From Catajapyx aquilonaris (taxonomy: Eukaryota), in assembly GCA_000934665.2 (NCBI GenBank), contig JYFJ02001452.1:59584-79583 (forward strand): a stretch of 20,000 nucleotides of DNA, in the 5' to 3' direction. A program made the translations under genes and the position numbers. Positions 3,252 through 18,115 of this stretch are shown here, piece by piece. Each line of letters starts with the position of its first letter. The first letter of the stretch is position 1. A model generated the notes under the pieces. It was not told the origin of the DNA and ran no database searches. It worked only from the letters and a program-made list of their open reading frames with translations.

Positions 3252-3361
3252 CTGTTGTACATGAGCACATCGGGTTTCCAGATGCGATGCGGCGGTATCC
3301 TAAGATCCTTCACCCCACCATATTCAGACACGTTCCACCGGAGATTCACGTCGTTCCATTC
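3252..3361 (-). CDS. nAChRalpha7: nAChR alpha7-like subunit, exon 4 ([37 protein letters not shown], loop A)
   Basis: Contains the WKPDVLMYN loop A motif, and IPPHRIW is alpha7/alpha5-like. Acceptor accag|GAA, donor AACAG|gtatgg. It is 110 nt, phase 0 to 2, with branch-point-like AACTAAC at 3381-3387. Confidence 0.96.
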
Positions 3362-6812: not shown

Positions 6813-8002
6813 TGGCACAAAGCAAACAAATGAGAAAGGCCTGGCCGCCTGCCAAATGAAAAGGTGGGGAGGGCAAGGGAAAAGGAGAGGGTTTCCTAGC
6901 TATAGCAAAAGCTATGAACGGAGCTATTCCTTGCCAAACCCTCGCGCAAAAATTCGATTCCCAAAACTACGGGGGCCTCCCACTAGAAAAATAAATAACG
7001 GAGAAAATTCTCACTGTGCCTTGTTTGTTGGAGAATCGTATAAATCAAGCGGCTGACGGGTGTGGTCTCGCATCAAAAATTGTGTAAGGATAGAAAGGTT
7101 AAGAAGTTTGGCAAACGAAATGTTCGCTGGAAATGTAAGTGAGAGTTGTACAAAACATGAGCGGAAAAAAATGAAAAAGATCCCCATTTTAACATGAAAG
7201 AAGCAGTAATTAATCCCACTTTGAAGTGCGGAATCATGCTTAATATAATTCCTTGGTTATTCGCAATCACGTCTTGCTATGTGGCTCCCCAGATAAGTTT
7301 TGGAAACACTTTTCTGTGGGGCCAACAAATACGCTGAGACAAGCTATTTCATTCGTTCCACGTGGGAAAGAACTTGGGGGAATTTATAATGCAAAGACTG
7401 TCACGTCCTGTGATTTATACGGACTGAGTTTCATACTTTGCATCGATAGGCTCCTGCACGAATTTTGCTATTCCGCAGGGATGCGACGGAAACAAGAAAA
7501 TGTCACACCGTATTAGGCTACAATGTAGCGAGAGAAATGACGATTCTATAACACAGCCACACTTTTTGTGGGATTAAATACTGAGGTGTTTTATTTCCAG
7601 CCCTTGTTTAGTCACAGATTATATGTGATACCCCCCCCCCCCCGCCCGCCAAAAATACCCAAAAACTTACGAATTGATGGCTAAATATATTTGAGACAAA
7701 TAAAGAAAGGCAATGGTGAGCTGTCGTCATGCAGATCCAATTCTCGAAATGACTAAATCTGCGTGAAGCTTTGTCAAACTCTGTATTCGGTTTGATTGTA
7801 AGTATAGTTTCAAGCTAGAGGATAAACAAAGTTGTGGAATGGTTTTCCGAAGCTAATCCCATGGACTTGCCATTCCGTGGAGGCTAGAGAGAACCATTCG
7901 GATGCAACGTGAGAAGCCTATGTTATCAAGCAGAACGTCCAGAGCTGAAGGAGAGAGTCAGTCCACAGACTATGCAGGATGGCTGGTACAGTATGTCGCG
8001 AG

Positions 8003-8055
8003 GCATGCTGGGGAATTGAGAATCAGAGATGCAAACATATTTGTTGGAGACCGAC
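8003..8055 (-). promoter_or_regulatory. Putative intronic element base-pairing with exon 3b and its splice sites
   Basis: Plus-strand GCATG...GAGAATCAG...GCAAACATATTTGTTGGAGACCGAC resembles exon 3b sense gcatg...AGAATCAG...ACAAACATGTGGTTAAGACTGgt, with wobble-type substitutions. Confidence 0.6.
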
Positions 8056-8158
8056 ACTGCCAAACAGCGAAGGCAACTCGATATATAGATATATATCTTT
8101 TTTTGGATATAAAATTCCTCTGATGTATATGAACTTTCTTGCTAGTGTGCTGACTTAC

Positions 8159-8203
8159 CAGTCTTAACCACATGTTTGTAATGAGAAGCTGATTCTTCTC
8201 ATC
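8159..8203 (-). CDS. nAChRalpha7: nAChR alpha7-like subunit, alternative exon 3b (DEKNQLLITNMWLRL, loop D)
   Basis: Minus strand reads ttttcattgcatgggatag|GAT GAG AAG AAT CAG CTT CTC ATT ACA AAC ATG TGG TTA AGA CTG|gtaagt. It is 45 nt, phase 0/0, with a branch-point-like AACTAAC at about 8237-8243. Confidence 0.93.
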
Positions 8204-8863
8204 CTATCCCATGCAATGAAAAGAAAATTTGGTGGTGTTAGTTTCTGCCTACGACACCCTGCTCAGGGTGCGTTTTTCTTGCGAACCTGAATTCTGGAGG
8301 AACACTCATAAAAACATAGACACACAGAACTAACTAATCAACACGGGTCCAGTCGTGAGCAAACCGACGGGTGAGCCAACTTTTATTGTTTTCCCCAGCG
8401 CCCTGTTATTACAGTGCTGACCGCAGGCTGCAGGATTGTTAGAGAGAGGGATCATATGATTAGCTTTAAAGTATGTAACCGACCGCTGGCCCACCGTCGG
8501 GGTGTTCACGTAATAGACGCCAACTCCAGAATTCAGTGTCGACCTCAAATGACGCTGCTGGACTGCCCGAGCCTGGCCCCCCAAAACGCCCGGTTGGTTG
8601 ACAAACAAAAGGATTTTCTCTCAACCCTTTATGGCCGAGCCCAACTCGTGTCAAAATGCCAGGCCTCACTCTCTATCAAATACAAGAGAGAAGAGATCCA
8701 GGGCTCCAGCCTCGTCATTTCGGAACCGGACTTTGCTTCCTCTGCTTGCTCTTTTTTAAAAGGCAAATCCTGCTCTGCCACCGGACAAAGTCAAAGTCGG
8801 AAGGTTCCCTTGCTGGAAAGGAAAGAGTTCACAGTTACAATGCACACTGTATACACAACTTAC
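8204..8863 (-). other. Intron between alternative exons 3a and 3b (660 nt), containing a long internal stem
   Basis: GT..AG borders, with nested inverted repeats 8287-8299/8524-8536 and 8364-8380/8485-8500. Confidence 0.85.
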
Positions 8864-8908
8864 CAAATTTAACCAGATGTTCGTGATAATGATTTGGTTC
8901 TTTTCATC
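8864..8908 (-). CDS. nAChRalpha7: nAChR alpha7-like subunit, alternative exon 3a (DEKNQIIITNIWLNL, loop D)
   Basis: Minus strand reads ctttttctctcctag|GAT GAA AAG AAC CAA ATC ATT ATC ACG AAC ATC TGG TTA AAT TTG|gtaagt. It is 45 nt, phase 0/0, and is not in the ORF track. Confidence 0.93.
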
Positions 8909-11900
8909 CTAGGAGAGAAAAAGATGGGCTGGCTTACACACATGATAGGTTATTCGATCATCACAAACTACTGGGAGGCGTTCACTTTCTAAAAGGAGTT
9001 CGTAAAAAAGTGGAGAAAAAGGTGAAAAAAAACCAAAAACATGTGCATCTCACAGTTTGAAAACTTGCAAAATCTCTGTCAACCAACTAAAAAGCCAAAA
9101 AACGTTGCCATTTCCTTCGCCAAAAAGTTGCAATTCTAAGTGTTGGTGCTTCCTCTTTCACGTTACTTGCAAAACACTCTACAAAACCAAAAAATTAAAA
9201 TAATATACAAAATAGGGGGGCCTACTAGTGCCTGATTCGCCGACAAAACACAAAAAATAAAAGGTTTGAAGCCAAATCAATAATCCGTTCAAGACTTACG
9301 TTACTGTACATACAGCTGTCACAACAAATGGTTGCGTGATGAAAGAGTCATATTTCAGTTGGGGAAAAAGGCTGCTGTAACATGGCGCCTGCAATTCACT
9401 CCTATTTCATGACCAATGCATTACACCCACCAATCGCGCGTTTAAACGCGACAGGAGATGTGGAGAGCTATCGCAAATGGAACAAAATGCCCTCCTGAAA
9501 AACGATACTGGAATACTACATCCCCCAAGTCGCCAGGGACTCTGCCCGTTGCCAACGTGTGAGAGAACACCCCTCAAAAAATATACAAAACGGCTGTCAC
9601 ACACAGACCAAATTAAAACCCATTCCTCATCTTCAGCTGCTTGTCAACCGTGAAACTTGATTGACATCGGCGACACAATTTACATAGATCTGACCTCTGA
9701 CAGAGCCGGAACGCAGGAAAACGCCAACGCTAATGCGTCGATTTAACTGCATATTAACCGAGCCTAGGGGCGGAATATTTTGTACCTCCCTTTTCTCTTT
9801 GCCCAAAAAAATACACGTCAGGTGCAAATGATCTTAATCTGCATACGTTTTTTGGGGGAATTCGAATCGATCCACACAAAATTTCTTGGTCCATTTTCAG
9901 ATTGTAGAAAGGGTGAAAGGCACCCTCTGCTCTCCAATCTAATAGGGTTGCACAATGCTGGAGATAAGGCAGGAACGCTAGTCGTCAAAAAATGTGCAAA
10001 CGGAAAGTTAAGCGCATAAATACTTCTGGAAAAGATATCCCCACTCCCCCTCCTCCCTCTTTTTTTTCCAGGCTAGATCTATGCCGGATTTTTCTTTTAG
10101 TTTTCCGCACTATCAGCCATCTTTCCTCATAAGAAGCGGCCTTACTCCGTCGGCGGGAAATTATAATCTTGATTTATGGTCGCGTACGATCCAACTTTCT
10201 GAAAATGTTTCTGCAATTTCTGGCCTAGCGCACTGCTAATATTCCCCTCCTCCATAGCATAGACCATAGAGCGTATAAAAATCCAGACCTTTTTACGGAT
10301 GTTGCCAGAAATAGACCACTGCTTGGCAACTCCATTCGGGAAGGGCACAAAAATGGTATTGATATGCATTGAAGTAATTAAGAGCGGTGTTTATGGAGAA
10401 AAGGGTGCAGCGATATATGGGCCTTTGGCAAATCCCTTTCGCCATAACTTTGTTGCCTTGATCTCGGCATGCAAAACCCTGAGCGATAGCTTTGGCTGCC
10501 TATCCTATCAATGCCGATGATGCTGCATAAACATTCCCTGCTTGAGCGAAATTGCCGTCATATCTGCTCAGTCACGGCGTCCTTTGCCAAAAAAAAAAGG
10601 AAAAAAGGAAGCAAGCCCACCCACAAAAGAGCCCTCGGTATGAAAGGGGGTGGAGCGACACTTTGATCGATTTCCATCAGCACTTGGAATATTGTGCAGT
10701 TATGCACGCATTTAGGCCATCATCCCTGAAAGACGCTGGAAAATTGGGCTGGCATAATGTATTTTTTCTGCATCTTAAGAGCACTGCAGTTTGGTCTATA
10801 ACATAGGTGAAAGTTTGCACAAGCTTTTATTCTAATTGAGACGATGTCTTTTCATGCGGCCGCTTTCAACTTCACGACCTATCAACAGAATATTATAGTG
10901 CAGCATCCAATATTCCGCGCAATTACACGTGTCACGAAGAAATGTATAATATACTGACAACGCGGCAACGTATCAGTCTCGGGAGGGTTGCATAACGGCC
11001 AGGATGAGTGCTCATTTTTGGCTAATTTTTTTTCCTTCAAAATCTCCATGCCAGTTAGCTAATTGGTCCATTCAGCCTGTTTCCTGCACATTTATCCGCT
11101 CCCATAGTTTTTCCCCAAAAAAGGCTCACATTTGTACTTTGGCCACCTTTTACACCCGATCTCCCGGGTAGTCCAAGCGAACAATGGGACAGCCCCCTGC
11201 CCCCCACCAATTACGAAACTACCGCTTTCAAAATCTGAGTACAAGCTGGTGCCAACGAACCGTATTCTCCACGTGGCCCTCCCCAGTCTGGATGTGTATA
11301 TACCTCGGGCTTAATTTGAGTGGTGGTTCTCCTCTGGGGAGCCCAATGGGAGGAAAACCTGGGGATGCTGCTGCCTGAATTAAGTCCCAAAAACGACAAC
11401 ATCGTCCCAGTGCATAGGGAGGGATCCATTCTGACCCCGGGGACTCTATATTAACTAGCCAAATGAACTCGGTGGGTGAGTTAAGCCGACTGGGTTGCGG
11501 GGACTGGAATAATCCGGGGACACCGCAGGCCCCCCCTAGTTTCCATCTACCGTTATATGCTCCAACCTAGGCATCTTTAGATCCGGAATTCGGGCCACGC
11601 CACTGATCCGGATAACAGGTCGCAAAACAAATCTGCGAGCGCCAATTTATGGCGGTTGTTTCGACGGAATTGAAACCGGATTTTCCATGTGATGTGGGCG
11701 GCTTGTAGTTTATCGCCTACTTGGGTGGGTGGGACTGGCTTGTTCCACTTGATAGTGGGATATGGCCGTTGCTGGCAACTAAACTACCATTCGCGGTCGC
11801 TCGTTAGACAAGGTGATCGGTTGGTAAACGGTCGGGAGCTACAGGAAATTCTGGAGCCCGTGTGTTTATCGCAGCGACGAGAAACGCGGTTTTGTGGAAA

Positions 11901-17975: not shown

Positions 17976-18115
17976 AACATCAATGATCTGCATGAGGGTG
18001 AGGCCGAAGCTGAGCTGAAGAGGGTCTGATTCGTTGGCAACTGGTCGTTCCAGAACGTTATATCTGTCCAGGAGTGTGTGAAGCAGCCGTTTCTCGTGCG
18101 GACCTTGAAGGGACC
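17976..18115 (-). CDS. nAChRalpha7: nAChR alpha7-like subunit, exon 2 (xG-SLQGPHEKRLLHTLLDRYNVLERPVANESDPLQLSFGLTLMQIIDV)
   Basis: Translation matches the N-terminal helix of insect alpha5/6/7 subunits, and DPLQLSFGLTLMQIIDV is the alpha5/alpha7 type. Acceptor tatttccag|GG, donor GTT|gtaagt. It is 140 nt, phase 1 to 0, the same length as CHRNA7 exon 2. Confidence 0.96.

Follow-up and report, generated by a model that had tools for sequence, protein, structure and literature searches.

Tandem alternative copies of exon 3 encode asparagine or arginine at a loop-D position of an alpha7-type nicotinic receptor gene in Catajapyx aquilonaris

A well-known case of alternative splicing in the agonist-binding region of an insect nicotinic receptor is that of the alpha6 subunit gene, where two versions of exon 3 (3a and 3b) are used in a mutually exclusive manner (Grauso et al. 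2002, as cited; Jin et al. 2007, PMC1919356; Jones & Sattelle 2007, PMC2064938). Within the loop-D segment, the residue located two positions after a conserved Trp (Trp+2) is the best-validated determinant of neonicotinoid action on the complementary, or minus, face of the binding site. For example, the R81T change in beta1 leads to neonicotinoid resistance in the field (Bass et al. 2011, PMC3121619), and in chicken alpha7 the sensitivity to imidacloprid is raised by Q79R and nearly abolished by Q79E (Shimomura 2002, cited in PMC10906874), so that the background on R81T and on basic substitutions at alpha7 Q79 that an initial annotation of the present DNA had cited is found in print. Here we analyze a 20,000-nucleotide (nt) window of the Catajapyx aquilonaris genome assembly (contig JYFJ02001452.1, positions 59,584 to 79,583), the minus strand of which contains exons 2, 3a, 3b, 4 and 5 of a nicotinic receptor gene with long introns. 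Our best overall explanation, to which we assign a probability of about 0.8, is that this is an alpha7 gene with alternative exon-3 copies that give Asn or Arg at Trp+2 and thereby tune the pharmacology of the minus face.

The exons were delimited by stop-to-stop reading, motif scans and direct reading of the junctions, and AG and GT border all five of them. The two copies of exon 3 are of equal length (45 nt) and of the same phase (0), each has its own AG...GTAAGT splice sites with a consensus GTAAGT donor, and the polypyrimidine tract is clean in 3a (ctttttctctcctag) and more purine-rich in 3b (ttttcattgcatgggatag). Direct reading of the minus strand gives the same exon peptides as the initial annotation, TNIWL-N-L for 3a and TNMWL-R-L for 3b, with the codons AAT and AGA each lying two residues past the Trp codon, and the proposed exchange of Asn for Arg by exon choice therefore stands; the span originally given to it, 8159-8872, takes in all of 3b, whereas of 3a it includes just the three final codons, L-N-L.

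Comparison of the two copies showed that they differ at 13 of 45 bases and are identical at 32. By codon, six carry a synonymous change only, which indicates purifying selection, and four encode different amino acids (I/L, I/L, I/M and N/R); three of these substitutions are conservative, and the fourth is the one at Trp+2, Asn in 3a and Arg in 3b. When the whole window was scanned in six frames with BLOSUM62, only 3a and 3b matched, with a score of 79 each against 27 for the next 15-mer, and this excludes a chance match and argues for an old duplication under constraint. The copies in this locus are without the T/I and A/I differences found in other species, yet the difference between N and a basic residue is kept, which suggests that selection has acted on the difference at Trp+2.

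Both copies are represented in RNA. Our RNA source was a single run (X1) from one study, in the form of Logan contigs assembled from a mixed metatranscriptome of invertebrates, at 0.07 of sampled words. Contigs from this run join exon 4 to 3b (3360/8158, cut +1) and to 3a (3360/8863, cut +1), and exon 2 to 3b (8202/17975, cut +1) and to 3a (8905/17975, with two other letters, a synonymous GAT>GAC), and a further joint connects exons 5 and 4 (619/3252). The joints show CT..AC on the plus strand, i.e., GT..AG on the gene strand, in every case except 3a/exon 2, where the cut is displaced by two mismatches. Since four joints link each copy to exons 2 and 4, 3a and 3b both serve as exon 3 in RNA. 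No joint between 3a and 3b, and no skip from exon 2 to exon 4, was present among the X1 contigs, which is no proof of absence because contigs drop rare forms.

The register of the toggled residue was established by alignments containing no gaps. Exon 2 aligns ungapped with the human alpha7 precursor over residues 20-65, and the locust orthologue P0089, with which the window also aligns ungapped, matches human alpha7 in the same manner through ...DVDEKNQVLTTNIWLQMSW...; these alignments place the exon-3 Trp at W77 and Trp+2 at Q79 (human alpha7 precursor numbering). In Myzus beta1, the corresponding stretch reads N77-V78-W79-L80-R81, so that R81 is likewise Trp+2 (Bass et al. 2011, Table 4, PMC3121619). 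Both the gap-free alignments and the published table agree on the equivalence of Trp+2, alpha7 Q79 and beta1 R81 that the initial annotation had assumed.

The coordinates of the gene features are given in Table 1. The first codon of exon 4 encodes Glu, which is Trp+4 of loop D. Exons 5, 4 and 2 each match the Pfam family Neur_chan_LBD above its gathering cut-off of 26 bits (74.5 bits, E 1.1e-20; 44 bits, E 2.2e-11; and 30.4 bits, E 3.4e-07, respectively), and the translation of exon 5 contains the Cys-loop signature, with two Cys 13 residues apart. The vicinal Cys-Cys of loop C, present in the orthologues P0096 and P0270 (...YYNCCPEPY...), is coded downstream of exon 5 and so beyond the window. 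A search of the whole window against Rfam gave 0 matches, and the six longest intronic open reading frames matched 0 Pfam families.

Table 1. Exons, the intron between the exon-3 copies, and Trp+2 codons of the nicotinic receptor gene in the window
Feature	Position	Strand	Description
Exon 2	17976-18115	minus	140 nt, starts at codon phase 2, ...GPHEKRLLHTLLDRYNVLERPVANESDPLQLSFGLTLMQIIDV; tttccag|GG...GATGTT|gtaagt
Exon 3a, upstream alternative, N-type	8864-8908	minus	45 nt, DEKNQIIITNIWLNL; ctcctag|GATGAA...AATTTG|gtaagt
Codon AAT, Asn at loop-D Trp+2 of 3a	8867-8869	minus	direct reading and register alignments
Intron separating 3a from 3b	8204-8863	minus	660 nt, from exon coordinates
Exon 3b, downstream alternative, basic type	8159-8203	minus	45 nt, DEKNQLLITNMWLRL; gggatag|GATGAG...AGACTG|gtaagt
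Codon AGA, Arg at loop-D Trp+2 of 3b	8162-8164	minus	direct reading
Exon 4	3252-3361	minus	110 nt, ends with AG of a split Ser codon; gaccag|GAA...ACAG|gtatgg
Exon 5, Cys-loop region	439-619	minus	181 nt; ctgcaag|T GCC...CAG|gtataa

Other X1 contigs cover exon 5 and the intron between 3b and exon 4. Two contigs overlap at 439-544 in exon 5, one identical to the window and one with nine differences, which suggests a second organism, an allele or a paralogue in the metatranscriptome. Another, at 515-621, differs from the window at 566 and 570, in both cases by a plus-strand T>C, i.e., A>G in the transcript; the changes (AAT>GAT, Asn to Asp, and AAC>AGC, Asn to Ser) fall within ...VVVRNNGSC..., and the second abolishes an N-G-S glycosylation sequon. 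In alpha6, ADAR edits sites with the loss of a glycosylation site as the result, and published lists of edited subunits include Dalpha7. The two changes are candidates for adenosine-to-inosine editing, or else differences from the genome of a relative; in a search for editing-complementary sequence near exon 5, the 25 inverted pairs in 1-1700 were all of low complexity, and none touched 550-590. In the intron, a 1164-nt contig matches 4115-5070 in pieces, with loose ends on both sides and five gaps of 113-187 nt that are without splice ends (GT..TT, AG..GA, GC..AG, CG..GT and TA..AT); this contig is probably a diverged repeat or the intron of a relative with deletions.

A database search with exon 5 returned 1725 proteins, of which the best 120 are all insect nicotinic-receptor subunits or fragments, 95-98% identical and mostly named "alpha-7". 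Since the automatic NCBI name "alpha-7-like" is given to alpha6 as well as alpha7 orthologues, we tested the assignment separately, using identities over the 158 residues that exons 2-5 encode. Further searches supplied author-named alpha6 proteins, second genes from the same species, and the author-named alpha 7 and alpha6 of Periplaneta. The window is 94-97% identical to "gene 1", the alpha7 of hemimetabolous insects (termites, locust, katydid, thrips and bugs), and 90-91% identical to Culex alpha-7. Among cockroach proteins, the author-named Periplaneta "alpha 7 subunit" (P0270) reaches 94.9%, versus 81.4% for the Periplaneta "alpha6 subunit isoform XIV" (P0252). We also constructed a quick IQ-TREE phylogeny (LG+C20, chelicerate root), each of its 40 rows standing for a different gene and chosen among 227 proteins. 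The window falls inside a 16-row alpha7 clade with Culex alpha-7, Anopheles "giant fiber A" and Arctopsyche "alpha7" (Shimodaira-Hasegawa-like approximate likelihood ratio test, SH-aLRT, 99), and Dalpha6 and the remaining rows with an alpha6 name form a separate 17-row clade (SH-aLRT 99); the place of the window within its clade is tentative, as it covers just 32% of the tree columns and its nearest neighbour, Coptotermes P0064, is long-branched. Judged by sequence, the gene is thus an orthologue of insect alpha7 (Dalpha7/gfA-type), of which the window holds exons 2-5, and the name alpha7 given in the initial annotation agrees with both the clade placement and the Periplaneta comparison.

In order to see how widespread the pair is, we surveyed 310 fetched proteins, 83 of which contain an exon-3 motif in alpha7-type flanks (…MQIIDV / EWND[VM]N…). 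Among these 83, 69 have the K-type only, mostly as DEKNQLLITNIWLKL, 7 have the N-type only (DEKNQI[LV]TTN[AS]WLNL, DEKNQMLTSNAWLNL), 6 have the two types in tandem in the same order as the window (N-type ahead of basic type), and 1 has an a-like exon with K. The N-type forms of alpha7 come from eight species, Schistocerca, Cryptotermes, Rhodnius, Halyomorpha, Lycorma, Homalodisca, Macrosteles and Neocloeon, which span Orthoptera, Blattodea, Hemiptera and Ephemeroptera. No N-type exon was found in holometabolous alpha7 in our sample, although this is weak evidence, as the sample consists of database models. In an alpha7 context, the b-type exon has Lys in 75 of 75 database proteins, and the window 3b is alone in having Arg; the Met that it has at Trp-1 also occurs in the Melanaphis protein P0172. 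The window 3a has Ile at two positions where other alpha7 N-type exons have Thr and Ala/Ser.

In alpha6 context, the pair consists of an N-type, DEKNQILTTNAWLNL (K in Hymenoptera), and an S-type, DEKNQLLITNIWLSL. In 19 hymenopteran alpha6 proteins (e.g., P0151, P0153 and P0157) the a-type exon reads DEKNQILTTNAWLKL, with Lys replacing Asn at Trp+2, and Apis alpha6 is described by Jin et al. 2007 (PMC1919356) as being without a second exon 3; it may be that a single exon 3 takes the basic residue where the pair has been lost. Unverified models from a tick, a spider, a prawn and the annelid Capitella (P0194, P0212, P0129 and P0131) contain an N-type 15-mer followed in tandem by a T-, K- or R-type, the a-copy always having Asn at Trp+2 and the b-copy being variable, and this hints that the exon-3 pair may be much older than insects. 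As alpha7 and alpha6 share the 3a/3b pair, the duplication most likely predates the split between them. The database proteins show the window pair as orthologous to the N/K pair of hemimetabolous alpha7 and paralogous to the N/S 3a/3b pair of alpha6. A broader proposal, that the pair is a splice-encoded switch acting on the complementary face of the agonist site, of ancient origin, older than the alpha6/alpha7 duplication and perhaps older than arthropods, we regard as speculative and rather improbable.

Exon 3 codes for the beta2 strand and loop D, on the minus face of the agonist site, and we propose that one of the two tandem 45-nt copies is spliced between exons 2 and 4. Exon choice would then alter the charge of the ligand pocket wherever alpha7 gives the minus face, in a homomer or in a heteromer, and this change of charge would tune the affinity, efficacy and selectivity of agonists. 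The response to ligands with an electronegative tip, such as the neonicotinoids, could possibly be tuned as well. A pharmacological switch between the 3a and 3b isoforms is plausible in view of what is known of the homologous residue. In human alpha7, Q79 lines a hydrophilic pocket by W77 in which the tail of the agonist EVP-6124 is accommodated, and affinity for this ligand is lowered by Q79T and by Q79K; the change Q57G (Q79 in mature numbering) altered the efficacy of morantel and not that of acetylcholine (ACh).

A rival reading is that the gene is alpha6, the target of spinosad, in which case the finding would be the textbook alpha6 3a/3b pair. The alpha6 gene has two exon-3 and three exon-8 alternatives, the "alpha-7-like" label covers both genes, and a Schistocerca orthologue has three versions of the exon for the second transmembrane segment (TM2), from which alpha6 was first suspected; that assignment was dropped after the tree and the named anchors. 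We consider it scarcely credible, given that the window lies in the alpha7 clade, away from the named Dalpha6 and other alpha6 proteins, and that its identity to five named alpha6-type anchors (Dalpha6 P0146, Asbolus P0159, Halictus P0151, Ptiloglossa P0216 and Myzus alpha7-2 P0166), each aligned along the full 158 residues, is 77-84%, lower than to hemimetabolous alpha7. In addition, the flanks of exon 3 are alpha7-type (LMQIIDV / EWNDVN) versus alpha6-type LQQIIDV / EW.DYN, and a separate alpha6-type gene is present in each of Cryptotermes, Hetaerina, Halyomorpha, Timema and Periplaneta. It is also very unlikely, if slightly less so, that 3a is a duplicate without function that is seldom used or in decay. 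Its core, IIITNIW, is unusual, and it departs at three positions from the alpha7 N-type form I[LV]TTN[AS]WLNL, but its frame is open, its polypyrimidine tract is strong, its donor matches the GTAAGT consensus, and the six synonymous-only codon differences from 3b indicate constraint. A more serious competitor, although we still hold it to be improbable, is that exon choice chiefly concerns assembly, choice of partner or gating kinetics, the N/R difference bearing on the neighbour that is accepted or on the speed of desensitization, and leaves insecticide pharmacology unaffected. The beta2 strand is also at the subunit interface, exon 3 choice in Tribolium alpha6 correlates with levels of RNA editing, an Ixodes alpha6 with both 3a and 3b is reported to have given no current where the form with 3b only did, and the alternative exons for loop C and the first transmembrane segment (TM1) and for TM2 in hemimetabolous alpha7 suggest combinatorial channel variants and not a switch dedicated to ligands. 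The K-type cockroach alpha7 homomer, of which imidacloprid is no agonist, fits this explanation too. Against it, the sole non-conservative difference between the copies falls on a residue that contacts ligands by mutagenesis and structure, and ACh responses are unchanged by vertebrate mutations at Trp+2, which argues for a tuning of selectivity.

Several observations weigh against the proposed tuning by alpha7 exon choice, and in particular against a strong version of it for insecticides. The 518-amino-acid (aa) Pame-alpha7 homomer of the cockroach was not activated by imidacloprid, and thiacloprid gave small currents, as reported by Cartereau et al. 2020 and 2021 (PMC7221154, PMC8471617). The author-named Periplaneta alpha 7 protein P0270, also of 518 aa, has a K-type exon and is presumably the same clone, judging from name, species and length, so that a basic residue at Trp+2 would be insufficient for neonicotinoid agonism. 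Moreover, the Glu at Trp+4 resembles E79 of chicken beta2, which masked the effect of T77R: in that subunit, T77R enhanced the action of imidacloprid solely together with E79V (PMC3121619). The action of spinosyns is described as allosteric and specific to alpha6, and knocking out alpha7 in Drosophila is described as giving no spinosyn resistance (PMC12979025), which makes an effect of an alpha7 loop-D toggle on spinosad unlikely. Concerning the RNA, several X1 contigs show 2-9 mismatches to the window and may come from a relative, and one run kept as contigs yields no isoform ratios and leaves room for transcripts with both copies or with neither. Models from other species contain both exons (P0058, P0065, P0067, P0069, P0099 and P0228) or none (P0117 and P0092), and strict mutual exclusion of 3a and 3b is therefore putative.

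Analysis of the region between the copies bears on what could enforce a choice. The length of the intron separating 3a from 3b would rule out simple steric exclusion, and nonsense-mediated decay could not police the choice, as the frame would be kept with both copies or with neither. The region 7400-9600 contains 10 inverted pairs, the best of which (8282-8299 / 8524-8541, 18 nt, 89% complementary) falls within the stretch that separates the two copies; we claim no docking or selector model for this putative pairing.

As to novelty, alpha6 3a/3b is textbook knowledge, and the alpha7 pair is already present in computed database isoforms. In the literature we searched, we found no published account of the alpha7 exon pair or of its link to R81/Q79, but solely work on alpha6; an earlier description in a cockroach gene-family paper is possible. 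By term search, the words "exon", "splice" and "isoform" are absent from both Pame-alpha7 papers (PMC7221154 and PMC8471617) and from a chimera paper. If the proposed role of exon choice is correct, receptor pharmacology may vary by neuron, stage or strain with no change in DNA. A cloned "alpha7" used in insecticide work would then stand for just one variant of the binding site out of two, which for the cockroach clone is the K-type. Under the broader and rather improbable proposal of an ancient switch, one gene could supply both "vertebrate-like" and "insect-beta1-like" minus faces, and the isoform ratio could set the sensitivity of a tissue or strain to neonicotinoids and other electronegative-tipped ligands, a target-site variable that monitoring of beta1 R81 for resistance would miss. 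The practical value is modest for now, as alpha7 is no known primary target of neonicotinoids or spinosyns.

Like the window, insect alpha6 has two tandem 45-nt loop-D copies of exon 3 with the N-type first, and the layout is alike as well: the introns between exon 2 and 3a, between 3a and 3b, and between 3b and exon 4 are 9067, 660 and 4797 nt here and >10 kb, 899 bp and 4675 bp in Tuta alpha6. The a-type peptide of alpha6, ILTTNAWLNL, which is also found in several alpha7 proteins, is nearly the same as that of the window. However, alpha6 is a different paralogue, in which the b-type residue at Trp+2 is Ser rather than the Lys of alpha7 (Arg here), so the splice toggle between a neutral and a basic residue belongs to alpha7 and not to alpha6, and it is alpha6, not alpha7, that is the target of spinosyns. 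The predicted alpha7 isoforms of hemimetabolous insects (for example, Schistocerca P0087/P0089, Cryptotermes P0096/P0102 and Rhodnius P0061/P0060, among others) are orthologous, with 93-97% identity over exons 2-5, and contain the same pair of N and a basic residue in the same order; those isoforms are computed models, whereas the window pair has RNA joints. The Schistocerca alpha7 models (P0119, P0117, P0105, P0092, P0087 and P0089) vary in further exons, which lie beyond the window: the loop-C/TM1 exon has an alternative and the TM2 exon comes in three versions. Other models are without exon 3 or TM2, and hemimetabolous alpha7 thus seems to have clusters of alternative exons like those of alpha6.

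With respect to the subunits in which Trp+2 has been studied, insect beta1 R81 is like 3b in its position, residue (Arg), codon (AGA) and local motif (N-x-W-L-R-L), but beta1 differs from the window gene in having Val at Trp+4, where Glu is present here, in being a non-alpha subunit that gives the minus face in heteromers, and in that the change arises by mutation and not by splicing. The residue is homologous to Q79 (Q57 in mature numbering) of vertebrate alpha7, the closest vertebrate relative, where mutants alter the responses to imidacloprid, morantel and EVP-6124 and ACh is little affected; unlike in the window gene, exon 3 of vertebrate alpha7 is single and constitutive and encodes Gln, and the residue at Trp+4 is Ser. 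The cockroach Pame-alpha7 is an orthologue (P0270, 94.9% over 158 aa) with the basic, b-type exon, and is the one isoform of its gene that was studied, corresponding to 3b of the pair that we describe in C. aquilonaris.

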